The notes under the pieces are model-generated. The model did no database searches, was not told the origin of the DNA, and worked only from the letters and a program-made list of their open reading frames with translations. Position numbers and translations under genes: made by a program. Shown piece by piece: positions 1-11,751 of a stretch of DNA of 11,751 nucleotides. The stretch comes from a virus: UHGV virus genome UHGV-1586850; one strand, given 5' to 3'. How positions within the stretch are numbered: position 1 is the stretch's first letter; each line of letters starts with the position of its first letter.

Positions 1-1
1 T

Positions 2-406
2 GCCACCATTGCGGCACTGATGACAGTTTACGATCAGGAGCTGCTCATGAAGGAGCTACGTAAACTCACCGGTCAGCCAACAGAATGTTTTTCTGCCCCG
101 AAGTACGGGAAACAGGAACACATCCCGGTGAACACGCTCCCCGTTAACCAGCCTCCCCGGTTCTTCGACGAATACATTCTGACACCGGAAAATAAAGCTG
201 AGCACGAAGAGATCAAAGCGGCGTTGTTCCGGGAAATCAGGAAGATTGCTGAAATGCAACTGGGGGGCGGGCTGGACAGAGTGATGGCGAGAGGAGAATG
301 GGAGTCGCTGTTTGAAAGAGTTTCCCCGGAATTACTTCCCCTCGCACTGGCTATCGGGATTATGCAGACAGCGGATAAACCTCACTTACGTTCATTAAAC
401 ACGTAA
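2..406 (+). CDS. Hypothetical protein, 5'-partial (frame open to the left window edge)
   Basis: No in-frame stop between position 2 and the first ATG at 20, and no Shine-Dalgarno before ATG 20, so the gene probably starts upstream of the window. Stop TAA at 404-406. No motif recognised. Confidence 0.4.
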   Translation, partial: ATIAALMTVYDQELLMKELRKLTGQPTECFSAPKYGKQEHIPVNTLPVNQPPRFFDEYILTPENKAEHEEIKAALFREIRKIAEMQLGGGLDRVMARGEWESLFERVSPELLPLALAIGIMQTADKPHLRSLNT

Positions 407-783
407 CGCATAATCCGGGATACGCATTCAGCGATGACTGCATTTTCACCGGTTTTTACTGCATCCAGAAGTGACTCTTTAAATGGTGCGGGCCGGGGCT
501 GCAGAAGGGTCGGCGTGGCATTGAGCAGACGGAGCGTTTTTTCCGTGAGGACGACATCAGCCGCTCCCACAGCCAGCAACTGAGAGTAACGAATATAGCT
601 GTTATCCCGAAGCCATATCAGCGTATCAATAAAATACCGGCACTTTTTCTGGTCGTGATCAACCTGGTCCGGGATATCGAAAAAACCAGAATAAATCAAA
701 ACCTGAGGTGCCGGATGCGTGTTCAGTAATCGGCAGAATATTTTGCCGGTGAGTGCATAAAAATCATCATTTAAGGAGTGCAT
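382..783 (-). CDS. Hypothetical protein (about 133 aa)
   Basis: 134-codon ORF on the minus strand with tandem ATGs (complement of 781-786). GGGGA SD-like element (complement of 790-794) lies 6 nt before the second ATG. Convergent 25-bp overlap with the preceding ORF. No motif recognised. Confidence 0.4.
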   Translation of the reverse strand: MHSLNDDFYALTGKIFCRLLNTHPAPQVLIYSGFFDIPDQVDHDQKKCRYFIDTLIWLRDNSYIRYSQLLAVGAADVVLTEKTLRLLNATPTLLQPRPAPFKESLLDAVKTGENAVIAECVSRIMRYVFNERK

Positions 784-784
784 C

Positions 785-1000
785 ATGAATCCCCGATTAA
801 CGTTAACAGAACATCAGCGCCGTGCTGAAGCAGTGAACAATGTTCTGGAAGATATTATCCGGTTACATCGCGGAGAACTGAGTGTCTGTCGTGCCGCTTT
901 TCATTTTCAGGGAATACAAAAGCAGTTTGATACTTCTGTTTTTGCAGAAGGTATTACTTATGCCCTGGACCGGATAAGGTCAGAAAATCGCCCCGGATAA
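785..1000 (+). CDS. Hypothetical small protein (71 aa)
   Basis: Strong SD AAGGAG (773-778) 6 nt upstream of ATG 785. Product unrecognised. Confidence 0.45.
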   Translation: MNPRLTLTEHQRRAEAVNNVLEDIIRLHRGELSVCRAAFHFQGIQKQFDTSVFAEGITYALDRIRSENRPG

Positions 1001-1056
1001 TCCCTAAACCACATTAACAGAAATCCCACTATCCCTGCCGCATCATGAAAGAACGA

Positions 1057-1087
1057 CCAGCCCGGTGCTTCGGACCCACCGGGCTGG
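1057..1087. other. GC-rich stem-loop (11-bp perfect stem, 9-nt loop) without a T-tract
   Basis: CCAGCCCGGTG (1057-1067) pairs perfectly with CACCGGGCTGG (1077-1087). No U-run follows on either strand, so it is not a canonical intrinsic terminator; could be an RNA structural element or REP-like hairpin. Confidence 0.3.
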
Positions 1088-1131
1088 CCATCGTCCCACA
1101 GAAGTGGCTGTGAGCCGACCGAGGTTCAGTC

Positions 1132-1143
1132 AGTCTCGCGAGA
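1132..1143. promoter_or_regulatory. Perfect 12-bp palindrome GTCTCGCGAGAC about 50 bp upstream of the methyltransferase start; candidate operator
   Basis: The sequence equals its own reverse complement. It sits just upstream of the AT-rich putative promoter region (1160-1180) of the Dam-like gene. Confidence 0.25.
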
Positions 1144-1191
1144 CCAGACTAGCCTGCCATATTTTTAATAATTGTAAAAGGCTTACAGATT

Positions 1192-1956
1192 ATGAAAATG
1201 AAGACATTACCCATCGTTCCATGGATTGGTGGCAAACGTCGCCTGGCAAAACACATCCTGCCGCTGTTTCCGGCGCATGAATGTTATGTGGAGCCGTTTT
1301 GTGGGGCAGCAGCGCTCTATTTTCTTAAGACACCCGGCAAGATCGAAGTCATCAATGATATCAACGGTGAACTGGTGAATCTGTACCGGGTGGTAAAGCA
1401 TCACCTGGAAGAATTTGTCCGCCAGTTCAAATGGGCGCTGGTCAGCCGTCAGATCTACAAATGGCTGCAGATCACCCCGGAAGAAACACTGACGGATATC
1501 CAGCGTGCGGCACGGTTCTACTACCTTCAGAAGCAGGCGTTTGGCGGCAAGGTGGCAGAGCACAGCTTCGGTACCTCCACCACATCCCCGCCACGCTTCA
1601 ACCTGCTGCGTATTGAAGAAGAACTGTCAGCAGCACACCTGCGGCTTTCCAGAACAGTCATAGAACACATGGACTGGCAACAGTGCATTGAGCGTTATGA
1701 TCGTCCGCACACACTGTTCTACTGCGACCCACCGTACCTGGGTACGGAAGGCTATGGTGTGGATTTTCCTGAAGGGAACTACTCGCGGCTGGCAGAGCTG
1801 GCCCGGTGCATCAGAGGAAAAATGATAATTTCGGTGAACGATATCCCACAGATGCGCGAGGTGTTCACTGGACTGAACATACAGACAGTGAACATCAACT
1901 ACAGTCTGGCGGGGAAATCTACGCCGCGCCGTGAACTGGTAATCTGCAACTTCTGA
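1192..1956 (+). CDS. Dam-family (D12 class) N6-adenine DNA methyltransferase, apparently orphan
   Basis: N-terminal VPWIGGKRRL (the xWxGGK signature of Dam-like enzymes), EPFCGAAALYF AdoMet-binding motif I variant, and catalytic DPPY at residues 179-182 (nt 1726-1737) in the Dam-typical position. No restriction endonuclease candidate adjacent. Confidence 0.9.
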   Translation: MKMKTLPIVPWIGGKRRLAKHILPLFPAHECYVEPFCGAAALYFLKTPGKIEVINDINGELVNLYRVVKHHLEEFVRQFKWALVSRQIYKWLQITPEETLTDIQRAARFYYLQKQAFGGKVAEHSFGTSTTSPPRFNLLRIEEELSAAHLRLSRTVIEHMDWQQCIERYDRPHTLFYCDPPYLGTEGYGVDFPEGNYSRLAELARCIRGKMIISVNDIPQMREVFTGLNIQTVNINYSLAGKSTPRRELVICNF

Positions 1957-1963
1957 AACAAAA

Positions 1964-1986
1964 CCGGAAAGCACAATGCTTTCCGG
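1964..1986 (-). terminator. Intrinsic terminator for the leftward repressor transcript
   Basis: Stem CCGGAAAGC (1964-1972) / GCTTTCCGG (1978-1986), loop ACAAT. On the minus strand the hairpin is followed by TTTTGTTTC (complement of 1951-1963). On the plus strand no T-tract follows, so it is a weak terminator at best for the methyltransferase. Confidence 0.5.
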
Positions 1987-2072
1987 TAAACCAAACAACT
2001 TCCACTATGTCACTGGCGATGTTTTCTGAAAGCATCCAGATCAACCACCTGTCCTTTGTGTCCAGGTCAAAA

Positions 2073-2411
2073 TCAGCCTGCGAGTTTGCTTGGTTTGGGT
2101 TGAATGAAGACTTTGCCGACCTCAAGAATTGCCCTCCGTTGTTCGGGGCTCATTTCGTCGAATGCATCCATTAACTCTTTCTTTTCTTGTGACACATAAG
2201 GTGCAACAACAGGCTGACTCCGCACCCCAGTAACTACATACAAAATATCTACACCGATTTCTGATAGTGCAGATAACTGCACTGCAGTAGGAGAAGTGCG
2301 ATCTTTTTCCCAATCAATGAAAGTTCTCTTTGCCACACCTATAGCATCAGCCAACCCTTGCTGTGTAAGAGATAGACGCTCTCTTTCTTCTTTAATACGT
2401 AACCCGATCAT
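2073..2411 (-). CDS. XRE-family HTH transcriptional repressor (prophage c/CI-like), about 112 aa
   Basis: Helix-turn-helix LSLTQQGLADAIGVAKRTFIDWEKDRTSP near the N-terminus if translation starts at the ATG at 2411. Leftward orientation, divergent from the early operon. The longer ORF-track model (GTG at 2564) would overlap the ner-like gene by 53 bp and lacks an SD. Confidence 0.7.
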   Translation of the reverse strand: MIGLRIKEERERLSLTQQGLADAIGVAKRTFIDWEKDRTSPTAVQLSALSEIGVDILYVVTGVRSQPVVAPYVSQEKKELMDAFDEMSPEQRRAILEVGKVFIQPKPSKLAG

Positions 2412-2458
2412 GTGAGTTTTTCTGCACTCTTTAAGTTGACTGGTGAGGTAATCTGCAC
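2412..2458. promoter_or_regulatory. Two 16-bp operator-like repeats GTGAG-N4-TCTGCAC (2412-2427 and 2443-2458)
   Basis: Direct repeat with 31-bp centre-to-centre spacing. Each copy is an imperfect dyad (GTGAG versus the complement of CTGCAC, i.e. GTGCAG). Copy 2 lies in the -35/-10 spacer of the early promoter. Confidence 0.4.
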
Positions 2459-2464
2459 CATAAT
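2436..2464 (+). promoter_or_regulatory. Candidate early promoter (Pe-like): TTGACT-N17-CATAAT
   Basis: -35 TTGACT (2436-2441), 17-bp spacer, -10 CATAAT (2459-2464). About 45 bp upstream of the ner-like start, whose SD AAAGGAGA is at 2499-2506. Confidence 0.5.
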
Positions 2465-2511
2465 CTATCACACATAAGGCAAACATCATTGCATCAACAA
2501 AGGAGACAACG

Positions 2512-2700
2512 ATGACTGCAGAACAAGTCAAAGCTCTCTTCCGCCAGCGCGGGATCACTTTCACCCGCTGGGCAGAAGAAAACGGCTACAACCGCAATGA
2601 GGTATACCGCGTTCTCAATGGGCAGACCAAAGCCCGTTACGGTAAATCCCATGAAATCGCCGTGAAGTTGGGGCTGAAATCAACAGCTCAGGCAGCCTGA
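2512..2700 (+). CDS. ner: Ner-like small DNA-binding regulator (Ner/Nlp family)
   Basis: 62 aa. The pattern of conserved residues (GY, Y/F-R-hL, IAxxLGL) aligns with my recollection of Mu Ner. It is the first gene of the rightward operon, divergent from the repressor, with a good SD. Confidence 0.7.
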   Translation: MTAEQVKALFRQRGITFTRWAEENGYNRNEVYRVLNGQTKARYGKSHEIAVKLGLKSTAQAA

Positions 2701-2752
2701 AGATTTTGAGTCTTTGTAAAAGGTTATCACATATCGCAAAAGAGGTATGCAG

Positions 2753-3061
2753 ATGAGTAAGACGAATGTTTCAAGCTCCGGCAGTCGCATCCTCCGGGTA
2801 CTCAAAGCGCTGCGCGGTCATGCCCTGAACGGTATTTCCAACGGTGAACTGGCGGCAGCACTGCACGAGTCACCGGCAAACATCAACCGGGCACTCAACA
2901 CCCTCATTGAAGAAGGGTTGGCCCTGAAACTGGAAAACGGGCGTTTCGCGCCGGGCATCCAGTTACTGCAGATCGCTATGGCCCACAGTAACGAGATGGC
3001 ACGTGCACAGGATCGCATTAACGAAATCAACCAACGTGTCATTTCAGGTAGTCGTTTGTAA
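2753..3061 (+). CDS. Hypothetical winged-helix-like DNA-binding protein (about 102 aa)
   Basis: SD AGAGG (2741-2745) is 7 nt before ATG 2753; the ATG at 2747 is too close to the SD. The N-terminal region ILRVLKALRGHALNGISNGELAAAL resembles IclR/MarR-type wHTH. Confidence 0.6.
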   Translation: MSKTNVSSSGSRILRVLKALRGHALNGISNGELAAALHESPANINRALNTLIEEGLALKLENGRFAPGIQLLQIAMAHSNEMARAQDRINEINQRVISGSRL

Positions 3062-3071
3062 GGAGTAATAA

Positions 3072-3983
3072 ATGGGACGCACCAAATCACCGATTAACAC
3101 TGAACTGAACGCCGAGGTACCGCTGTCGGATGATCTCAATGTCAGTCTGAACGCCATGACACAGCATCGTATGGAGATCATGCAGCAGTTTGGCGATGGT
3201 CAGCCCTATGAGCGTGATCGCATAGTTCATGAGGCTCGGTTTTATATGGCACAGAGCGCTGAGGCCATGCTGGAAGCAGGTAAACGACTTATTATTCTCA
3301 AAGAAAATGAACCTCACGGGGACTTTGTTGGAATTGTAGAAGAACAACTTGGTCTGCATGTGCGCGCAGCACAACGAATGATGAAAGCATCTTTGAAATA
3401 CCTTTCACCAAAACTAGAGCCAAAAGCGACAACGTTGTCGCTTTTAGGTAAGGCAAAATTATTTGAACTTGTTGCTGAAGATGACGACGACCTTGCTGAA
3501 CTGGCCGACGGTGGCACAGTTGCCGGACTGACGCTTGACGATGTTGATCGCATGTCAGTACGTGAATTGCGTCAGGCCCTGCGCGAAGCGCGCGAAACCA
3601 ACGCAGCACAACAGCGCGTACTCGCCGACAAAAATGAAAAAATAGATTCACTCTCCACCAGACTGGAGAAGAAATCCCGTATTCAGCCGCCTGAGCCTGA
3701 TGAGGAGGTTAAGAAGCTGCGGGCGGAAGTAACAGCATTAGCGGTTGAGGCGGAATCTGCTATCGCCGTCCGACTGTCCAGCGCTTTTGAGACGCTGTGC
3801 GCATATTGTGCTGAAAACATGATTGATACCCCCAGAGACTTCATGGCAGGCCTGGTCTGTCAACTGGAAAGCACAGCGCGTAGCCTGCGCTCCACATTTG
3901 ACCTGCCGGACGAGCCAACAGGCAATGCAGCGCCTTCATGGCTGACTGAGCCGACGCCACAGATTAACGGGCTGGAGGCATAA
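3072..3983 (+). CDS. Hypothetical protein (303 aa) with an acidic stretch and predicted coiled-coil
   Basis: SD AGGAG (3061-3065) 6 nt before the ATG. Acidic run AEDDDDLAELADGG and a heptad-like charged helical region. Stop is 3 nt before the transposase start (translational coupling). Confidence 0.65.
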   Translation: MGRTKSPINTELNAEVPLSDDLNVSLNAMTQHRMEIMQQFGDGQPYERDRIVHEARFYMAQSAEAMLEAGKRLIILKENEPHGDFVGIVEEQLGLHVRAAQRMMKASLKYLSPKLEPKATTLSLLGKAKLFELVAEDDDDLAELADGGTVAGLTLDDVDRMSVRELRQALREARETNAAQQRVLADKNEKIDSLSTRLEKKSRIQPPEPDEEVKKLRAEVTALAVEAESAIAVRLSSAFETLCAYCAENMIDTPRDFMAGLVCQLESTARSLRSTFDLPDEPTGNAAPSWLTEPTPQINGLEA

Positions 3984-3986
3984 CCA

Positions 3987-5756
3987 ATGAATGCTGCCCT
4001 GACTGAACGACTGGTTTATGTCGCCCGCGCGGCACGTGACGCGGGGCATGGTAAACGCGGCGCAGTATACGACGCTGCCTGTGCTGAACTTGGCATGTCC
4101 CGCGCCACTCTGCTGCGCAGGCTGAAGGAGGTATCTGTGACTGATAAACGCAAAAAACGCGCCGATGCCGGGCGCAGCGCCCTGACCCGCGACGAAGCCG
4201 CGCTGATATCTGCCACACTGCGTGAGGCCACCCGCAAGAACGGTAAGCGTCTCTATTCCATCGCGGATGCAGTGGAAACCCTGCGGGCTAACGGCTTTAT
4301 ATCCGCAGGCAGAACAGATGAAACCACCGGTGAGTTTTTCCCGTTGTCCGAAGATGCCATCAGCCGAGCCCTGCGTAACTATGGCCTGCACCCGGAACAA
4401 CTGGATGCCCCTGCACCGCATACCGAAGTGGCCAGTCTGCACCCCAATCATGTCTGGCAGATTGACGCCTCACTCTGCACGCTTTACTACCTGAGCAATG
4501 GACATAAAGGGCTGCAGGTGATGGACAGCGCGAAATTCTACAAAAACAAGCCCGCTAACCTTGCCCGTATCGCCAGTGACCGCGTGTGGAGTTACGAGAT
4601 TACCGACCATGCCAGCGGCTGGATTTACGTTGAGTATGTGACGGGTGCGGAATCCGGTGAGAACCTGTGTTCTGTGCTTATCAACGCCATGCAGGAGCGT
4701 GGCGGCGCAGACGTGCTGCACGGCGTGCCAAAAATACTCTATCTCGACCCCGGCTCGGCAAACACCGCGGGTATGACGAAAAACATGTGCCGCTCACTGG
4801 GCATCGACCTGATAGCGCACAAGCCGCATAACGCCCGCGCCACCGGACAGGTGGAAAAGGCGCGTGACATTATCGAACGCAAGCTGGAGCCGGGTCTGAA
4901 GTTCCGGCCGGTTCACAGTCTGGAAGAACTCAACGCGCTGGCCGCGAAATGGCGCAGCCACTTTAACGCCACGGCTGTTCACAGCCGCCACGGTAAAACC
5001 CGCACGGATATCTGGCTGAAGATTACTGCTGAGCAGCTGAAAAAAGCGCCTTCCGTTGAGGTATGTCGTGAACTGGCTGTGGCGGCACCAGAACTCCGCA
5101 AAGTCACGCCAAAACTTCGTGTCTCGTTCCGGGGCACTGAATTTGACGTATCAACGGTACCGGGCGTACTGGTCGGTGAAAAACTGATGATTACCCGTAA
5201 CCCGTGGCGCAGCGATGTGGCACAGGTGGTTCTGACCGGTGAGGACGGCCACGAGACGTTCTTCCTGGTCGAAGAGGTCAGAAAGAACGAGTTTGGCTTT
5301 GCTGAAGGCGCGGCGGTATTTGGCGAAAGTTACAAAGCCCTGCCGGAAACCCCGGCGCAGATGGCGGCAAAAGAAACCGAAGCGCTGGTCACCGGTACAG
5401 ACAACGCCGCAGATGCAGCTGCCGCACGCAAGGCGAAGGCGCTGCCGTTCGGCGGGCGGCTTGACCCGTATAAACATATTGATGACGCCACACTTCCGGC
5501 CTGTATACCGAAGCGTGGTCAGGCCTCTGACGTACGCGGGCCGCGCACTGAACAACGTCCCATGACTTATGTGGAGGCCGCGAAAGCCCTGCGCGATAAG
5601 TTCAGCGCCAACGGCTTTACCTGGACGCCGGAACATTACCGCCAGTTAACGGCACAGTATCCGGACGGCGTACCGGAAGCCGCACTGGATGAAGTCATGG
5701 CCACGCTGACCACGCCGGCCCGCAGCAGCGTTATCAGTATTGTTAACGGCAACTGA
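3987..5756 (+). CDS. DDE transposase/integrase-fold protein (Mu A-like; DD(35)E catalytic core)
   Basis: 589 aa, SD GGAGG (3974-3978). Candidate catalytic triad D160 (HVWQIDAS, nt 4464-4466), D254 (ILYLDPGS) and E290 (ATGQVEKA), with the 35-residue D-to-E spacing typical of the rve/retroviral-integrase superfamily. HTH-like N-terminus. Followed directly by an ATPase gene, as in Mu A/B. Confidence 0.85.
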   Translation: MNAALTERLVYVARAARDAGHGKRGAVYDAACAELGMSRATLLRRLKEVSVTDKRKKRADAGRSALTRDEAALISATLREATRKNGKRLYSIADAVETLRANGFISAGRTDETTGEFFPLSEDAISRALRNYGLHPEQLDAPAPHTEVASLHPNHVWQIDASLCTLYYLSNGHKGLQVMDSAKFYKNKPANLARIASDRVWSYEITDHASGWIYVEYVTGAESGENLCSVLINAMQERGGADVLHGVPKILYLDPGSANTAGMTKNMCRSLGIDLIAHKPHNARATGQVEKARDIIERKLEPGLKFRPVHSLEELNALAAKWRSHFNATAVHSRHGKTRTDIWLKITAEQLKKAPSVEVCRELAVAAPELRKVTPKLRVSFRGTEFDVSTVPGVLVGEKLMITRNPWRSDVAQVVLTGEDGHETFFLVEEVRKNEFGFAEGAAVFGESYKALPETPAQMAAKETEALVTGTDNAADAAAARKAKALPFGGRLDPYKHIDDATLPACIPKRGQASDVRGPRTEQRPMTYVEAAKALRDKFSANGFTWTPEHYRQLTAQYPDGVPEAALDEVMATLTTPARSSVISIVNGN

Positions 5757-5766
5757 GGAGGGAAAC

Positions 5767-6933
5767 ATGCTGGTACTGAAGCAGCAACTGAAAGAGGCCC
5801 GTATTCCACAGGCGGTGGTGGCGAGAGCTGTCGATGTTTCTGAGGCCACGCTGGCCCAGATTGTGAATCATAACGCGTGGCCCCGCACCAGCCCCGGAGA
5901 AGTGCGCCGGCGTCTTGCGTCCTGGCTGGAAAGTCAGGGGATTGATACAACGAAGAGTTTTGATGCTGTACAGGGCGCGGCCACGCCCCGTACAGCGGGT
6001 ACCACAGATAAAACGAGCCTCAGTGAGGAAGAGAATATGTTACTCAAAAAACAGGTGTTATTTCCAGCAACCAAAAAAGCGTTTGGTCTTTTCCGTGACC
6101 CGTTCGCCGACGAAGCCATGCAGGGTTCTGATGATGTGTTCACCACCCCGGATATTCGCTACGTGCGTGAGGCGTTGTACCAGACAGCCCGTCATGGTGG
6201 GTTTATGGCCGTCATCGGTGAGTCCGGTGCGGGTAAATCCACGCTGCGCCGCGACCTGACTGAACGTATCAACCGCGAGAATGCGCCGGTAATTGTTATC
6301 GAGCCATACATCATCGCTATGGAAGACAACGATGTGAAAGGGAAAACCCTGAAGGCAGCAGCGATTGCCGAAGCCATTATCAGTACCATCGCACCACTGG
6401 AAAGCATCAGACGCAGTCAGGACGCCCGCTTTCGCCAGTTGCATCGCGTCCTGAAAGACAGCAGCCAGGCGGGGTTCAGCCACGTTCTGGTGATTGAGGA
6501 GGCCCACAGTCTGCCCATTCCGACACTGAAACACCTCAAACGCTTTTTTGAGCTGGAGTCCGGTTTCAAAAAACTGCTGTCCATCGTGCTGATTGGCCAG
6601 CCGGAACTGGCGACAAAACTGTCTGAACGCAATATGGAAGTCCGTGAAGTCGTTCAGCGCTGTGAGGTGGTCGAACTTCTGCCTCTGGACAATAACCTTG
6701 AAGAGTTTCTGACGTTCAAACTGCAACGGGCCGGTAAACAACTGACGGACATTATGGACGCCAGCGCAGTGGATGCCATACGTGCCCGCCTGAGCAATCC
6801 GGGAAGTCATCGTAAAAATATGGTCAGCCTGCTGTATCCGCTGGCCGTCAGTAACCTGGTAATAGCCGCCATGAATCTGGCCGCTGAAATCGGGGTTCCA
6901 CAGGTCAACGCTGACGTTGTCAAAGGGGTTTAA
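5767..6933 (+). CDS. AAA+ ATPase transposition helper (Mu B-like / ExeA-type)
   Basis: Walker A GESGAGKST and Walker B VLVIEEAH; N-terminal HTH-like segment. Start placed at ATG 5767 with SD GAGGAGGG (5754-5761), not the TTG at 5740 used by the ORF track. Confidence 0.8.
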   Translation: MLVLKQQLKEARIPQAVVARAVDVSEATLAQIVNHNAWPRTSPGEVRRRLASWLESQGIDTTKSFDAVQGAATPRTAGTTDKTSLSEEENMLLKKQVLFPATKKAFGLFRDPFADEAMQGSDDVFTTPDIRYVREALYQTARHGGFMAVIGESGAGKSTLRRDLTERINRENAPVIVIEPYIIAMEDNDVKGKTLKAAAIAEAIISTIAPLESIRRSQDARFRQLHRVLKDSSQAGFSHVLVIEEAHSLPIPTLKHLKRFFELESGFKKLLSIVLIGQPELATKLSERNMEVREVVQRCEVVELLPLDNNLEEFLTFKLQRAGKQLTDIMDASAVDAIRARLSNPGSHRKNMVSLLYPLAVSNLVIAAMNLAAEIGVPQVNADVVKGV

Positions 6934-6935
6934 TA

Positions 6936-7205
6936 ATGAAATCCACCACAGGTATCAACCAGCAAATCAGCAAAGTGCAGTCAGCCATTATGGCGCTTAA
7001 GGCGACGAACACGGATGTACAAAGCATCACCATCAGGGGTAACAAACCTGTCATCCGCGTTTCCCGGAGTGCGCATTGCATGCGCATGCTTGAGCAGGGA
7101 AAGGCCTGTTATCTGTATACCGGTCATGACCACAGGGGACATTTCCGTCAGGGCGTTTTCGAACTGCACGGCTGTCGCGTCGTGTGGCCGGAATCTTTGT
7201 GGTAA
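6936..7205 (+). CDS. Hypothetical early protein (89 aa)
   Basis: SD AAGGGG (6923-6928) 7 nt before the ATG; begins 2 nt after the B stop. Unrecognised. Confidence 0.55.
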   Translation: MKSTTGINQQISKVQSAIMALKATNTDVQSITIRGNKPVIRVSRSAHCMRMLEQGKACYLYTGHDHRGHFRQGVFELHGCRVVWPESLW

Positions 7206-7232
7206 TCAGCACAACAGGAGGAGTCATAAAAT

Positions 7233-7763
7233 ATGGCAAAAAGTACAAAAGGGGCAAAACGTATCAAAGCCGCAGCAGCACTCTGGGTGCCGGGGACACG
7301 CGAAGAGGTCATTGAGGGAATCAGACTGCTTGGTGACGCGCAACGTGAACTGGTCAGGGCTGAAACAGAAATGAATGACACCATTGGCGACATCACCGCA
7401 CGTTATGCCCCGCTCACCGAGAGCCTGAAAAAACGCATGGCCGAACTGCAGTCCGGTATTCAGACATGGTGTGAGGCACACCGTGATGAACTGACCGGCA
7501 ACGGGAAGGTGAAGTTCGCTAACCTCACCACCGGCGAGGTGCAGTGGCGAAACCGTCCGCCGTCAGTCAGTATCCGTGGGGCGGATAATGTTATTGAATT
7601 ACTGAGACGTCTGGGGCTTGAGCGCTTTATCCGTGTAAAGGAGGAAATAAATAAAGACGCCATCCTGAATGAAAAGGACGCCGTGAAAAATATTCCCGGT
7701 ATTACCATAAAAAGTGATATTGAGGATTTTTCAATAATTCCTTTTGAGCAGAATGTGCAGTAA
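7233..7763 (+). CDS. gam: Gam-like host-nuclease inhibitor (Mu Gam family, Ku-like DNA-end-binding protein)
   Basis: 176 aa. Conserved blocks matching my recollection of Mu Gam: AKRIKAAAA, ETEMND, WCEAHRDELT, RPPSVSIRG, GLERFIRVKEEINKDAIL, IEDFSIIPFEQ. Strong SD AGGAGGA (7216-7222). Confidence 0.9.
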   Translation: MAKSTKGAKRIKAAAALWVPGTREEVIEGIRLLGDAQRELVRAETEMNDTIGDITARYAPLTESLKKRMAELQSGIQTWCEAHRDELTGNGKVKFANLTTGEVQWRNRPPSVSIRGADNVIELLRRLGLERFIRVKEEINKDAILNEKDAVKNIPGITIKSDIEDFSIIPFEQNVQ

Positions 7764-7859
7764 AAACAGCATATAAGCTATTTAAAACAGCCTTTTCTTT
7801 TTTATTCCGGCATCAGCGCCGTGGGCTTCTGCACGCCGGAAACAGAGGAGAATTAAATC

Positions 7860-8054
7860 ATGATATTTAAATGTATTCAGTGCGAGAGGGATATAACAGC
7901 CCTGCGTTTTCACAGCGCCATCGCCGTGATGTCCGGTAAATACCACATCCCTGCGGTACGCGTCACCCTGGTCTGCCCGTACTGCAGCCAGCATTTTTCG
8001 GCAGACGTGCCCGTCATGGAATTCTCCCGCCCTGACAGGGAGGACTCGCAATGA
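7860..8054 (+). CDS. Small zinc-ribbon-like protein (64 aa)
   Basis: Two CxxC pairs (CIQC near the N-terminus, CPYC near residue 40). SD GAGGAG (7844-7849). Confidence 0.5.
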   Translation: MIFKCIQCERDITALRFHSAIAVMSGKYHIPAVRVTLVCPYCSQHFSADVPVMEFSRPDREDSQ

Positions 8055-8323
8055 TTACCCCACAGGAAGCACGACAGCGCACCCGAACCCTTGTTGAACA
8101 CTATGTCAACGAGTGTGAATGCCGCGACCTCACCGATGTGAAGCACGTCCTGACGGCGCTAATCAGCATGACCGCTCAGGCCATTGTGGCGACCAACGGA
8201 AAGGCGGCTGCCCTGCAGGTACTGGTGAACACACTCACCCACACGGCAGAGCACGATGTGCCGTACCGGATGGAAACCACTGCAGAAGGCGGCCTGAACA
8301 TCACCGTCGACCGGAAACACTGA
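8051..8323 (+). CDS. Hypothetical early protein (90 aa)
   Basis: ATGA start/stop overlap with the upstream gene (8051-8054). Unrecognised. Confidence 0.55.
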   Translation: MITPQEARQRTRTLVEHYVNECECRDLTDVKHVLTALISMTAQAIVATNGKAAALQVLVNTLTHTAEHDVPYRMETTAEGGLNITVDRKH

Positions 8324-8332
8324 GGGCGCGGC

Positions 8333-8638
8333 ATGACACGGAACACCGAACTCACCCGCACCGCCCTCTACCGTCTGGCCCTGCAGCGTTTCGGGCCGGA
8401 CGCACAGGCCCTGAAACTGACAGAAGAGGCCGCTGAACTGGCGGCCAGTGCCGCCCGCAACCTGAACGGACAGGGCAGCGAAAGTGACCTCGCGGCAGAG
8501 CTGGCAGACGTGGAAATCATGACAGAGCAGCTGCGCCTTCAGGGAATGGACCGGCTGATTGACTTCCACAAACAGAAAAAACTGGAACGCCTTGCCGCAC
8601 GGCTGGGCGTCATGTACACCGGAGATACTGAACAATGA
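8333..8638 (+). CDS. MazG-like all-alpha nucleotide pyrophosphohydrolase (putative)
   Basis: 101 aa with EExxE (TEEAAEL) followed by ExxD (AAELADVEI) acidic motifs in predicted helices, as in MazG/HisE-type NTP-PPases. SD GAGGG (8322-8326). Confidence 0.5.
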   Translation: MTRNTELTRTALYRLALQRFGPDAQALKLTEEAAELAASAARNLNGQGSESDLAAELADVEIMTEQLRLQGMDRLIDFHKQKKLERLAARLGVMYTGDTEQ

Positions 8639-9318
8639 CAGACCAGGATAAACACATTGAGAAACTGAAAAAGTTGCTGGCGCTGGCCGCATCCGGCAAC
8701 CCTCACGAGGCCGCTCTGGCACTGCGCCGTGCCCGTAAACTGATGGATGTTCACGGCATCACACATTCCGACATCGCCATGAGTGATATTGATGAAACCA
8801 TCAGTCACTACTGGCCGACAGGCAGCCTCCGTCCACCGCGCTACATGCTGGGCCTGATGAACATCATCCGCGAGGCATTTGGTGTTAACTCCATCATTCA
8901 CCCCGGCACATATCCGGGTGTGGGGTTCTACGGCAACCGGGAACGGGCTGCACTGGCTGCGTACACCTGGGAAGTGCTGGCCCGTCAGCTGAAAAAGGCG
9001 CGTCAGCAATATATCAGCGCACAGAACAAAAGAATAAAAACTGCCACCCGTACCAGCCGTGGTGACCAGTTTGCTGAAGGCTGGGTGCTGGCCGTTATCA
9101 GTGAAATACAGTCCTTCGCCCTGACCGATGACGAACGTGAACTGATGCAGCAGTGGCTGGAACATAAATACCCGCAGACGCAAACCACCAGGGCGCGTAA
9201 ACCGGGAAGAAGCCGCAATGGCGACGCCTCGCGCTATGCGGGGTTTCGTGAAGGGCAGAACGTCAGACTGCACCGCCCGGTCAGTGGGCAGGAACAACAG
9301 AAACTGGAGGCCAGATGA
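8635..9318 (+). CDS. Conserved phage early protein with DUF2786-like N-terminus (227 aa)
   Basis: ATGA overlap with the upstream gene. N-terminal KLKKLLALAASGNPHEAALALRRARKLM resembles the DUF2786 motif common in prophage early regions. Confidence 0.65.
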   Translation: MTDQDKHIEKLKKLLALAASGNPHEAALALRRARKLMDVHGITHSDIAMSDIDETISHYWPTGSLRPPRYMLGLMNIIREAFGVNSIIHPGTYPGVGFYGNRERAALAAYTWEVLARQLKKARQQYISAQNKRIKTATRTSRGDQFAEGWVLAVISEIQSFALTDDERELMQQWLEHKYPQTQTTRARKPGRSRNGDASRYAGFREGQNVRLHRPVSGQEQQKLEAR

Positions 9319-9545
9319 TTACGCTATCAGGTAAAAGCCGGAAATTAAAAGCCTGCCGAATATCTGCCAGATACCTTTTTGCCCGCGCCTTTTTTAAGAA
9401 CGTCAGGCCGGGGATCACAATTGGTGTTATTGCCGGACGCGAACAGGTTGAAAAATACATGTCAGGTGCATGGTGGAATAACGACCCTGTCATTGCTGCC
9501 CGTAATATTCATATCAGTTGGGGGGATATTCAGAATGACGGCTGA
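9315..9545 (+). CDS. Hypothetical small basic protein (76 aa)
   Basis: ATGA overlap with the upstream stop (9315-9318). Unrecognised. Confidence 0.45.
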   Translation: MITLSGKSRKLKACRISARYLFARAFFKNVRPGITIGVIAGREQVEKYMSGAWWNNDPVIAARNIHISWGDIQNDG

Positions 9546-9750
9546 ATCTGTTGTATGTGCCCTGTTCTGGTATTGTTTTGTCGGTTGGTGTACTGCTGAA
9601 CTGCACCGCCGTTCAGGGTTTTATTCACGTTACAGTGGTGCTGGCTACTGGATTAGCTGGTCGGTGATGTTCCTGTGCTGGCCTGTGGCGCTTCCTTTAT
9701 ATGTCGATTATATCGGTGGCGCAGGTAAAAGGAGCAACGATGATGACTAA
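9535..9750 (+). CDS. Small membrane protein (71 aa, two predicted TM helices)
   Basis: In-frame ATG at 9535 preceded by GGGGGGA (9520-9526). Hydrophobic segments VVCALFWYCFVGWC and WISWSVMFLCWPVALPLYV. The ORF-track start at 9379 is unsupported. Confidence 0.5.
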   Translation: MTAESVVCALFWYCFVGWCTAELHRRSGFYSRYSGAGYWISWSVMFLCWPVALPLYVDYIGGAGKRSNDDD

Positions 9751-10192
9751 ACAACGTCTTATCCAGCTCATTCATATTGCCCGTAATGAACTGGGTATGG
9801 ATGAAGACACCTACCGCCAGATGTTACAGGGGCTGACCGGTAAAGCCTCAACCAAAGGAATGGATACCACACAACTAAACTGCGTGCTGGAATCCATGAA
9901 AAGGAAAGGCTTTCGCGTTAAGCCTGCCGGAAAAGCCAGCTCCGGTTTACCGCTGGATAACCATCCGCAGTCCAGGAAAATCCGTGCGCTATGGCTTGAA
10001 ATGGCTGCTGCCGGCATTGTTCGTGACCGTTCAGAAAATGCATTAGCGAGGTGGATCAAGCGGGAAACGGGCATCAGCGCCCTGCGCTGGCTCAGTACTG
10101 AACAGGCAAGCAGTGTTATTGAGAAACTGAAGAAGTGGCAGCGCAGAGCTGCGGGAGTCAAACATGAGCGACCTGAATCAGTTTCGAAGTAA
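9740..10192 (+). CDS. gemA: GemA-like protein (Mu gp16 / DUF1018 family)
   Basis: SD AAAAGGAG (9727-9734) 5 nt before ATG 9740. N-terminal TKQRLIQLIHIARNELGMDEDTYRQML matches the gp16/GemA signature as I recall it. Sits immediately upstream of mor, as in Mu. Confidence 0.65.
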   Translation: MMTKQRLIQLIHIARNELGMDEDTYRQMLQGLTGKASTKGMDTTQLNCVLESMKRKGFRVKPAGKASSGLPLDNHPQSRKIRALWLEMAAAGIVRDRSENALARWIKRETGISALRWLSTEQASSVIEKLKKWQRRAAGVKHERPESVSK

Positions 10193-10562
10193 AGGGCCGG
10201 AACTCCTGGTGGAGCTGGCACAGCATACCTCTGAGACCGTTCGCGAGATTATTGATATTGAGCCCGCAATTGCCGACCAGATTGGTCAGGCCGTCGCGAA
10301 CCGAATGATGCAGGTCTGGGGCGGGCAAAACGTTTATTTCCCGATGGGCATGGTATGGAAGGTCAGTCAGCGCGACCGGGAAATCTTCAGGGAGTTTAAC
10401 GGACGCAACCACCACGAACTGGCCCGCAAGTTTGGTGTTTCGCTTCAGTGGGTCTACAGCGTGGTTAAGCGGGTCAGAAAAGAAGAACTGGATCGGATGC
10501 AGGGCAGGTTGTTTGATGAAGATCTGCCAGAGGAGACGAAAGACGTTAACAAATCCAGATAA
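10164..10562 (+). CDS. mor: Mor-like transcriptional activator (Mor/C family)
   Basis: 132 aa. C-terminal GGQNVYFPMG ... FREFNGRNHHELARKFGVSLQWVYSVVKR matches the conserved Mor/C HTH region (compare Mu Mor GGGQVYIP ... FNGRN ... YGV ... VYK). Last gene before the intrinsic terminator. Confidence 0.85.
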   Translation: MSDLNQFRSKGPELLVELAQHTSETVREIIDIEPAIADQIGQAVANRMMQVWGGQNVYFPMGMVWKVSQRDREIFREFNGRNHHELARKFGVSLQWVYSVVKRVRKEELDRMQGRLFDEDLPEETKDVNKSR

Positions 10563-10605
10563 TTCCTGCTTGTTAAAGTCCTTTCAAAAATCTCCTTATT
10601 GTATA

Positions 10606-10638
10606 AAAGCACGGTAGACCCCTTACCGTGCTTTTTTT
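10606..10638 (+). terminator. Rho-independent terminator ending the early operon
   Basis: Stem AAAGCACGGTA (10606-10616) / TACCGTGCTTT (10624-10634), 7-nt loop GACCCCT, then a run of T's to 10638. Confidence 0.8.
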
Positions 10639-10676
10639 ATGCTCTCTCTTTAGTATTCAGGATGCAGGGAGAAAAT

Positions 10677-11309
10677 ATGTTTGACGTTTCGTTGTTAAAT
10701 CTGCCATGGGCAACACTGGTGACCCTGACCAGTGGCTATATTGGGTATTTTATTGCGAATGTGGGACTGAAGGATCACCACAAGCCCATTGAGGTGACTT
10801 TTTCTTCGCTGATTTTTGGCCTGACAGCAATGATGGCTTACCAGGCTGTTATGTGGGCAGGTCTGAATGCCTGGCTGGCAACACCACCAGCACTTCTGTG
10901 TGCCGTTACATGCGGTGCGTGGTGGCGCAGGTACGGTCGCAAATGGATGTACAGATTACTGTGGAATAATGATATTTCATGGTCTGACGATACCAGCTCA
11001 GCATGGCAGGCAATGTTTGATCAAACAGGCTTCAGCGTTACCGAGGTCAGAGTGATTCTTCGCGATGGTTCCGGTATGATGTCACGGCTGCCAGGGAACT
11101 TTGAAGAGTGGCCTAACGGTCCGTTTACCCTGGGGAATAAAGGCGATATGGTTCTTTACGTCACGCACAGCAGCCCTTCAGGCAGTAACGAATGGGAAGA
11201 GTATAAAGGCGTGGTTGATAAGTACTGGGGAGCTCTGGCAACCTATATTCCAGCAGATCAGATTGCCAGAGTGGAGATCAGGCGCGTTCGTGCAACGAAC
11301 GATGAATGA
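10677..11309 (+). CDS. Integral membrane protein (210 aa; three N-terminal TM helices plus a soluble C-terminal domain of about 125 aa), function unknown
   Basis: SD AGGGAG (10665-10670) 6 nt before ATG 10677. Hydrophobic segments at about residues 9-31, 40-63 and 68-83. The ORF-track start at 10599 lies inside the terminator hairpin and is rejected. Confidence 0.7.
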   Translation: MFDVSLLNLPWATLVTLTSGYIGYFIANVGLKDHHKPIEVTFSSLIFGLTAMMAYQAVMWAGLNAWLATPPALLCAVTCGAWWRRYGRKWMYRLLWNNDISWSDDTSSAWQAMFDQTGFSVTEVRVILRDGSGMMSRLPGNFEEWPNGPFTLGNKGDMVLYVTHSSPSGSNEWEEYKGVVDKYWGALATYIPADQIARVEIRRVRATNDE

Positions 11310-11312
11310 TGT

Positions 11313-11474
11313 TTATTTTTTCCCTGGGGCAGGGGCTGCCGGCATAGTGGTTTTATTGGCAGAGGAAGACGATTCTCCTTTTCTACCGGAATCGCGCTCG
11401 AACGTCACGATGTGCTTGCTTTTGGGCTTTTCTGAGTAATCCAGGCTATCATGCTTATTGTTTTGAGTAGTCAT
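11313..11474 (-). CDS. Possible small hydrophilic ORF (53 aa), speculative
   Basis: ATG (complement of 11472-11474) preceded by AAGGA (complement of 11483-11487) at 8-nt spacing. Low-complexity product MTTQNNKHDSLDYSEKPKS... Below the ORF-track size cutoff. Confidence 0.2.
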   Translation of the reverse strand: MTTQNNKHDSLDYSEKPKSKHIVTFERDSGRKGESSSSANKTTMPAAPAPGKK

Positions 11475-11549
11475 TGGAATCATCCTTTTTGTTGCGGGTC
11501 ATGTTTCAGCAAACTCGATTCTAAGTTGCCAGGAAGGATGATTTCAATG
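11472..11549. repeat. 16-bp inverted repeat (15/16 match) with 46-bp spacer
   Basis: CATTGGAATCATCCTT (11472-11487) versus the reverse complement of AAGGATGATTTCAATG (11534-11549). Each arm read outward contains AAGGA-N8-ATG, an SD plus start codon. Confidence 0.45.
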
Positions 11550-11629
11550 CCCGACTTATCTATCGTATAGCGGAAAAGAATTTCAGTTCTGTTCACCAGA
11601 ACCCATGTTAACCCACTCCAATTCGTTAT

Positions 11630-11751
11630 TTATCTCACGGATCCCCCTTCATTTATCTCATGTCTGATCATGTAATCCAGCAGATGATGCTCCGCAAGAA
11701 TCACAATGTGCTGGACTTCAGTCACCACATGCATATTAATGCCGCGATCGT
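11630..11751 (-). CDS. Possible 3' end of a minus-strand gene entering from the right window edge, speculative
   Basis: 39 sense codons open to the window edge, ending at TAA (complement of 11630-11632). Too short to assess. Confidence 0.2.

Follow-up and report, generated by a model that had tools for sequence, protein, structure and literature searches.

The stretch of DNA analyzed here (11,751 nucleotides; hereinafter the window) very probably comprises, from position 1 to 11670, the arm with the regulatory, transposition and early genes of a transposable prophage of the BcepMu/B3 type (genus Bcepmuvirus; PMC2628397; PMC5977238; PMC8705779) inserted in the yjjP gene of Escherichia coli. 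Prophages of this kind are common and already known, and no new biology is implied. Many prophages in E. coli genomes show 99.7% nucleotide identity across window positions 1–11670, an equivalent prophage is found in ~12% of complete E. coli genomes (e.g., in ST131 strains; NZ_CP147551.1, 108037–146376), and Escherichia phage PhiKM (Bcepmuvirus; PQ738613) is 95.3% identical to the window at the nucleotide level across 84% of its length. The main value of the analysis is a correction: a sequence-only reading had applied the template of phage Mu to a BcepMu/B3-type prophage, whose repressor has an internal position and whose early operon finishes at the genome terminus, and this led to a false call of a truncated or rearranged element.

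An intact early arm with a single Mor/C-family gene

The early operon runs outwards from the repressor, with the stop codon of its last gene, mor, at 10562 and the genome terminus at 11670. Its features are:

2512–2700, plus strand: first early gene, a small HTH DNA-binding protein in the Ner/Cro position (phrog_925, E = 3.8e-33)
2747–3061, plus strand: IclR-type winged-helix regulator (Pfam HTH_IclR, E = 3e-6), in the position of BcepMu gp12 and B3 ORF14
3072–3983, plus strand: DUF3102 protein (Pfam DUF3102), like B3 ORF13
3987–5756, plus strand: DDE transposase TnpA with an rve core, related to those of B3, BcepMu and Tn552
5767–6933, plus strand: transposition ATPase TnpB, ExeA-like AAA+ (Pfam AAA_22, E = 3.8e-20; phrog_296, DNA transposition protein)
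7233–7763, plus strand: Gam host-nuclease inhibitor (Pfam Phage_Mu_Gam, E = 7.8e-41)
7860–9750, plus strand: semi-essential early region of small ORFs, including a DUF2786/DUF7168 protein (8635–9318)
9743–10192, plus strand: GemA (Pfam GemA, E = 1.3e-40)
10164–10562, plus strand: Mor/C-family transcription activator, the last gene of the operon (Pfam Mor, E = 1.1e-43)
10605–10635, plus strand: strong intrinsic terminator (13-bp stem and T-run) closing the operon

The first early gene occupies the position of BcepMu gp16 and B3 ORF17, and the DUF3102 gene is conserved directly upstream of the transposase among BcepMu/B3-type phages. TnpA shares 68% identity with BcepMu gp09 and 56% with the B3 TnpA; a Pfam scan recovered only the rve domain in it, with no MuA-specific DNA-binding or C-terminal domains. 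Among all 69 records matched by TnpA in a tblastn search (E ≤ 1e-3), no Mu-group name appeared in the organism or host tallies, the organism tally listing PhiKM and Phi06_2974 B as the only Escherichia phages and zero Shigella phages. The window TnpA departs from that of the nearest complete-genome copy by three substitutions (T501A, Y506C and M507I), and an exact look-up of this variant returned no record.

The sequence-only reading was right that C and the late genes are missing from the window: the ORF map and Pfam scan revealed no head, tail or lysis genes, nor is there a second Mor/C-type gene. The lack of a separate C gene is nevertheless no defect, since complete relatives do without it too. 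Searches for a second Mor/C paralogue yielded a single match each, and none beyond it, in the window, a complete E. coli prophage, BcepMu and B3, and judging from these sequences a lone activator of this type is the normal state of BcepMu/B3-type phages; the single Mor-family protein presumably activates the late arm. In BcepMu/B3-type phages, the repressor lies ~9.6 kb inside the genome, flanked by two divergent arms. Transcription of the early arm (Ner-like HTH protein, IclR-like regulator, DUF3102, TnpA, TnpB, Gam, small ORFs, GemA and Mor, in this order) proceeds outwards as far as the genome end, at 11670 in the window copy. The other arm, running in the opposite direction and, in the window copy, expected to the left of position 1, holds a variable cargo slot, followed by genes for holin, endolysin, terminase, a Mu-like head, a P2-like tail and an invertase.

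The early arm in the window is intact. Alignment with one complete prophage copy was gap-free (36 SNPs, with 22 of 22 ORFs open), and the window likewise aligned without gaps to full-length relatives of 37.6–38.3 kb (up to 99.7% identical), in which the complete late region is present (lysis, Mu-like head and P2-like contractile tail genes). The earlier suggestion of a remnant or a rearranged element does not agree with this collinearity. For the window copy itself, completeness to the left is extrapolated from these relatives, because its left junction and late region (26.7 kb) lie beyond the window. A deletion of the late arm or the left end to the left of position 1, leaving an intact early arm, would fall on the side beyond the window; we nonetheless consider such a remnant improbable, as the window shows no decay, the cargo ORF found ahead of the holin in complete copies is already matched by its first 406 nt, and in complete E. 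coli genomes the early modules are nearly equalled in number by the late ones (709 places in 640 genomes and 715 places in 641 genomes, respectively).

The right terminus and its junction with yjjP

The right-hand part of the window, beyond the early-operon terminator, contains:

10677–11474, both strands: end-proximal cargo of two ORFs, located between the early-operon terminator and the terminal repeats
10677–11309, plus strand: 210-aa protein with a hydrophobic N-terminal part
11313–11474, minus strand: 53-aa ORF, convergent to the 210-aa gene
11628–11636 and 11651–11659, minus strand: two copies, 23 nt apart, of the sub-terminal repeat GAGATAAAT, presumed TnpA-binding sites
11627–11670, minus strand: early-side prophage terminus, ending ...TGATCA, with the terminal CA at 11669–11670
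11671–11751, minus strand: 5′ portion of the host gene yjjP, reading towards the prophage (100% identity to the core gene yjjP)

The prophage ends had been reported as not found; one of them is in fact in the window, at 11670 against yjjP. The match to the prophage copies of other E. coli genomes stops after this base (...CATTTATCTCATGTCTGATCA|tgtaat), and the segment that follows (11671–11751) is matched in 5422 of 5426 complete E. coli genomes. The right boundary is thus exact, the disrupted host gene is yjjP and, with the right end present against it, there is no sign of rearrangement or truncation. The earlier proposal that the element extends on both sides with accessory genes accordingly holds for the left, where the element continues and the methylase region described below is accessory, and fails for the right, where it ends at 11670.

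The terminus of the window's end variant adjoins unrelated host DNA at seven other loci (L002–L008) and at five additional ones (L011–L013, L016 and L019), and that of a short end variant does so at 5 more; together with the window, both variants give 18 distinct host flanks for the early-side terminus, as with near-random insertion sites. A junction query found no place covering the prophage/yjjP junction in the 5426 complete E. coli genomes, exact junction patterns had 0 matches in GTDB species genomes and JGI metagenome contigs, and a look-up of the DUF2786 protein recovered ten other insertions, none of them in yjjP. Although this absence from complete genomes and searched contig collections would fit an assembly chimera at 11670, we regard a chimera as very improbable because the break coincides to the base with the conserved terminal CA, the point at which the 12 other same-variant loci also pass into unrelated host DNA, and a random chimera would not do this; given the near-random insertion of transposable phages, a private site is to be expected.

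The two GAGATAAAT copies lie 12 and 35 nt inward of the terminus; no other position in the window fits GMGATAAAT, for which 0.12 occurrences were expected (two matches were reached in 1 of 200 shuffles). Six independent full-length copies (37.6–38.3 kb) have TG...CA termini, G[A/C]GATAAAT repeats at +12 and +35 from both termini, inverted between the ends, and, in 6 of 6 cases, perfect 6-bp duplications (CCAATA, GTTATC, TTAAGC, GTATGT, TTGGAC and TCAGGC). The ends of BcepMu and B3 align gap-free with those of the E. coli prophages; B3/Tn552-family transposases produce 6-bp duplications (PMC8705779), and relatives of BcepMu combine TG...CA ends with a Tn552-like transposase of the rve type (PMC2628397). 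Of the features that the sequence-only reading had proposed to look for, inverted sub-terminal motifs are present at both ends of the relatives, while the duplications are of 6 bp instead of 5. Terminal inverted repeats and a target duplication enclosing a complete late region, which it had named as evidence against its own view, are found in the six near-identical copies, the window copy showing the right end only.

In the window copy, the flank after the terminus is TGTAAT (11671–11676), the left flank being beyond the window, and the empty yjjP site reads CGCCTT-TGTAAT-CCAGCAG; from the six relatives, TGTAAT is predicted to be the 6-bp target-site duplication. The left junction is predicted as ...CGCCTTTGTAAT|TGATGCGCC..., and the late-side end, of the TGATGCGCCGCGCGATAAATG type (TGATGCG...), is expected ~26.7 kb to the left of the window, after the other yjjP fragment (...TCTCTACGCCTTTGTAAT). 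The rve-type TnpA, with TnpB as its likely ATPase partner, would presumably bind the two sub-terminal repeats of each end, cut at the terminal CA and join it to a target cut with a 6-bp stagger. An end signature for finding such prophages is TGA-N8-G[A/C]GATAAAT-N14-G[A/C]GATAAAT together with a 6-bp duplication.

The ~1-kb end-proximal cargo is lacking from the short end variant (e.g., in PhiKM), and neither of its two ORFs has a family match in Pfam or PADLOC; a promoter-like site on the minus strand (11547–11518) is aimed at the 53-aa ORF. Tentatively, and with more doubt than confidence, it might be an uncharacterized lysogenic-conversion or superinfection-exclusion/anti-phage module at the prophage tip.

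The repressor and the methylase slot

To the left of the early operon, the window contains:

1–406, plus strand: 3′ part of a 247-aa accessory ORF (phrog_3787) that starts ~337 nt left of the window; a 744-nt CDS is annotated in relatives
382–786, minus strand: 134-aa accessory ORF (phrog_2266)
785–1000, plus strand: 71-aa accessory ORF (phrog_4490)
1192–1956, plus strand: D12-class N6-adenine DNA methyltransferase, Dam-like (Pfam PF02086, E = 5.9e-29; PADLOC MTase_II)
1963–1987, minus strand: intrinsic terminator hairpin with an 11-bp stem and a 3-nt loop, then TTTGTTT on the minus strand
2073–2564, minus strand: lysogeny repressor with a cI/XRE-type HTH (Pfam HTH_3, E = 3e-7; weak Phage_CI_repr; PHROG repressor families)
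2412–2511, no strand: divergent regulatory region with a promoter-like site and direct repeats

The repressor, which is in the position of BcepMu gp17 and B3 ORF18, could start at 2564 (longest ORF), at a TTG at 2531 (RefSeq) or at an ATG at 2411 (112 aa), the last being the likeliest. In the divergent region, a promoter-like TTGACT-17-CATAAT (2436–2464, plus strand) faces the early operon, and the direct repeats GTGAG-N5-TCTGCAC (2412–2427 and 2443–2458) are candidate operators. The hairpin begins 6 nt past the methylase stop and most likely terminates the repressor transcript. The 86 bp that had been noted between the repressor stop at 2073 and this hairpin, beside the convergent methyltransferase, were measured correctly (2073 minus 1987), but the accompanying expectation of room for transposase-binding sites was taken from Mu, the wrong template here: the gap needs no such sites because in BcepMu/B3-type phages the repressor is internal and no end adjoins it.

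Pfam, PHROGs and PADLOC searches of the accessory ORFs recognized the methylase alone, the others falling in PHROGs without known function (the 247-aa ORF had no Pfam or PADLOC match), and no restriction partner was seen beside the methylase. Other genes take the place of the methylase region in relatives. The region is an internal variable cargo slot between the repressor and lysis genes, and not an end, with the methylase and its neighbors being accessory genes within the element as opposed to flanking host DNA. A Mu-type layout, with the left end just past the repressor, the methylase region as host DNA or an insertion, and the end lost, draws on the boundary-like look of the convergent genes and hairpin beside the repressor, but we give it almost no credence: phage-identical DNA runs leftwards into the holin in every relative fetched far enough left; a Mu-like end was sought in the 86-bp gap and the methylase region, and the end motif is absent there and near 1957–2072, occurring only at 11628–11659; the transposase is not MuA-type (Pfam: rve only); the target duplication is 6 bp, not 5, in all six relatives; and the repressor is likewise internal in BcepMu and B3.

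Relationship to PhiKM, BcepMu, B3 and Mu

PhiKM and the E. coli prophages share with the window the same genes, gene order, termini and sub-terminal repeats. PhiKM differs in part of its repressor/cargo region and in carrying the short end variant, and the yjjP insertion site is the window copy's own, being seen in no complete genome. The layout of BcepMu (Burkholderia phage, NC_005882) is as here, with Mor, GemA ... TnpB, TnpA, a gene in the DUF3102 position and the regulators coming first, followed beyond the regulators, as also in the E. coli relatives, by the repressor, cargo, holin, endolysin, terminase, Mu-like head and P2-like tail. Unlike BcepMu, which is without an invertible tail-fibre segment (PMC2628397), the E. 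coli relatives have a recombinase and inverted tail-fibre pieces at the late end. The BcepMu Mor is 56% identical to that of the window and its ends read TGA...G[A/C]GATA[T/A][T/A]T at +12 and +35; it differs in host, cargo genes and semi-essential ORFs.

The siphovirus B3 (Pseudomonas phage, NC_006548) resembles the window element in its gene order, Tn552-related TnpA, ExeA-like TnpB, DUF3102 neighbor, alignable termini, two divergent arms, and Mor and GemA at the genome end. The two divergent arms of B3, with gemA near an end, and its 6-bp duplication have been described (PMC8705779). Its late arm is without the P2-type contractile-tail genes of the E. coli relatives and has a methylase annotated inside it.

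Escherichia phage Mu is, like the window element, transposable and temperate, with TG...CA ends, Gam, GemA, a Mor-family activator and Mu-like head genes. However, Mu has a MuA-type transposase, a repressor beside the left end with its L1–L3 sites, an early operon running inwards, a 5-bp duplication, and separate Mor and C activators, and none of these traits holds in the window element or its relatives.

The right terminus and its host junction

Expecting a Mu-type layout, the sequence-only reading reported that the prophage ends were not found and that the element might be rearranged or truncated; the right end nevertheless lies in the window. In megablast searches of 5426 complete E. coli genomes, positions 1-11670 aligned at up to 99.7% and never further, and the last 81 bases, which have 95-100% matches in 5422 genomes (100% in the eight listed), belong to the core gene yjjP. 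The terminus (...CATTTATCTCATGTCTGATCA) adjoins unrelated host DNA in 12 other fetched loci with the same end variant, as does a shorter end variant in five further loci. The 771-nt coding sequence of yjjP, a gene for a ThrE-family exporter, is interrupted after about 298 nt (window 11671-11751; 728-1498 in L010, a locus without the prophage), a site occupied by a prophage in 0 of the 5426 genomes.

Six independent full-length copies (37.6-38.3 kb each) were fetched, located at upaG, tnaB, eamA, around cheA/cheW and at two other sites. All six start with TGATGCGCCGCGCGATAAATG... and end in ...TGATCA, and all are flanked by perfect 6-bp direct repeats (CCAATA, GTTATC, TTAAGC, GTATGT, TTGGAC and TCAGGC). 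The search for inverted sub-terminal motifs that had been proposed from the sequence bore out: G[A/C]GATAAAT stands at +12 and +35 from the terminus at both ends, mutually inverted, with the window copies at 11651-11659 and 11628-11636 being its only matches there, versus 0.12 expected by chance. From the empty yjjP site (...CGCCTT TGTAAT CCAGCAG), we predict a left junction at which ...CGCCTTTGTAAT would meet TGATGCGCC...

Gene content, control region and completeness

Features of the window (ORF map and Pfam/PHROG scans)
1-1000: three small accessory ORFs
1192-1956, plus: D12 adenine methylase (Dam-like)
stop at 2073, minus: cI/XRE-type repressor
from 2512, plus: small HTH protein, in the plus-strand operon
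from 2747, plus: IclR-type regulator, same operon
from 3072, plus: DUF3102, same operon
3987-5756, plus: rve-type transposase TnpA, same operon
5767-6933, plus: AAA+ TnpB, same operon
from 7233, plus: Gam, same operon
between Gam and GemA, plus: small ORFs including DUF2786
from 9743, plus: GemA, same operon
10164-10562, plus: Mor, last of the operon
10605-10635: strong terminator after Mor
right of the terminator: 210-aa ORF (plus) and 53-aa ORF (minus)

As the sequence-only reading stated, late genes are absent: the ORF map and Pfam/PHROG scans revealed no lysis, head or tail genes within the window. Its suspicion of a remnant has to be weighed against the state of what is present, since all 22 ORFs are open and the window differs by 36 substitutions and no gaps from bases 26671-38340 of a complete prophage copy of 38340 bases. 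Further, complete genomes contain the transposition module at 709 places (640 genomes) and the portal/terminase segment at 715 (641 genomes), near-equal counts by which remnants retaining only the early arm must be rare. The left 26.7 kb of this copy, lying outside the window, is very probably complete. Relative to the closest complete-genome copy, a five-substitution cluster at 5480-5507 changes three TnpA residues (T501A, Y506C, M507I); this exact TnpA sequence is absent from the protein-position index.

The 86-bp gap between the hairpin at 1963-1987 and the repressor stop is as originally measured. The hairpin (11-bp stem) begins six bases past the methylase stop, and because TTTGTTT comes after it on the minus strand, it reads as the intrinsic terminator of the repressor. 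More than one start codon fits the repressor: with the RefSeq TTG (2531), as with the longest-ORF GTG (2564), it overlaps the first early gene (ATG 2512), and ATG 2411 yields a 112-aa HTH protein, equal in length to a 339-nt annotation in the related locus L004, and leaves a 100-bp divergent control region. This region holds two GTGAG-N5-TCTGCAC repeats and a promoter-like site (2436-2464) that one of them overlaps, an arrangement through which the repressor may control the early promoter. For some relatives (L004, L007), alignment to the repressor/operator segment 2194-2460 is poor or absent although the flanks are 97-98% identical, which suggests heteroimmune alleles.

Variation among relatives

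The methylase slot holds quite different genes in relatives. More broadly, the repressor-to-holin slot (window 1-2072; about 500-3900 in the related loci L011-L020) is a hypervariable stretch in prophages that are nearly identical elsewhere: this copy has three small ORFs and the Dam-like methylase, where others encode a Flk_N-like protein of 328 aa, DUF2441, or an NA37 protein together with a 401-aa protein. Between the terminator of the early operon and the presumed transposase-binding repeats there is a further cargo of about 1 kb (10640-11600); it comprises the 210-aa protein, whose N-terminal part is hydrophobic, and the convergent 53-aa ORF, which has a promoter-like site of its own at 11547-11518. 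It gave no Pfam or PADLOC match, and its PHROGs are of unknown function. The second end variant (Escherichia phage PhiKM and loci L014, L015, L017, L018 and L020) lacks this cargo, its terminus lying about 160 bp past Mor.

The PhiKM deposit (PQ738613; 'partial genome') is circularly permuted, so that its early-side terminus is internal, near 20577 (region about 20200-20740); the adjacent CDS annotated 'Fe2+ ABC transporter permease' probably stems from packaged host DNA or from a join made in assembly and is unlikely to be a phage gene. At the late end of full-length E. coli relatives, a serine recombinase adjoins oppositely oriented tail-fibre gene fragments (L003, 3116-7298), a configuration resembling an invertible host-range switch of the Gin/G-segment kind; BcepMu was reported without such a switch (PMC2628397).

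Relationship to BcepMu and B3

The transposase sites that a Mu template places beside the repressor are not to be expected here: TnpA has an rve core only (Pfam), and the repressor is internal, as in Burkholderia phage BcepMu and Pseudomonas phage B3. With this layout the repressor-side gap is internal DNA in which no transposase sites are required, and the earlier finding arose because the wrong template was applied. The separate C gene is likewise missing from the complete relatives as well as from BcepMu and B3, and the organism/host tallies of 69 records matching TnpA include no Mu-group phages. BcepMu relatives have TG...CA ends and an rve, Tn552-like transposase (PMC2628397); the divergent layout is the B3 organisation, and B3/Tn552-family transposases are credited with 6-bp duplications (PMC8705779). 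By analogy with this family, TnpA, partnered by TnpB as the ATPase, would bind two repeats per end, cleave at the CA and join the ends to a 6-bp staggered target, and a single Mor-type activator would turn on the divergent late arm.

The window holds an ordinary arm, intact in appearance, of a prophage type that is widespread and has been described before. Its TnpA shares 68% identity with BcepMu gp09 and 56% with B3 TnpA, and the ends of both phages align base for base with the repeat-bearing ends described here. In both records, as in the window, Mor/GemA adjoin the genome end and TnpB/TnpA read towards it; the repressor is found some 9-10 kb in from that end, and past it come a few cargo genes and then, in the opposite direction, holin, endolysin, terminase, head and tail.
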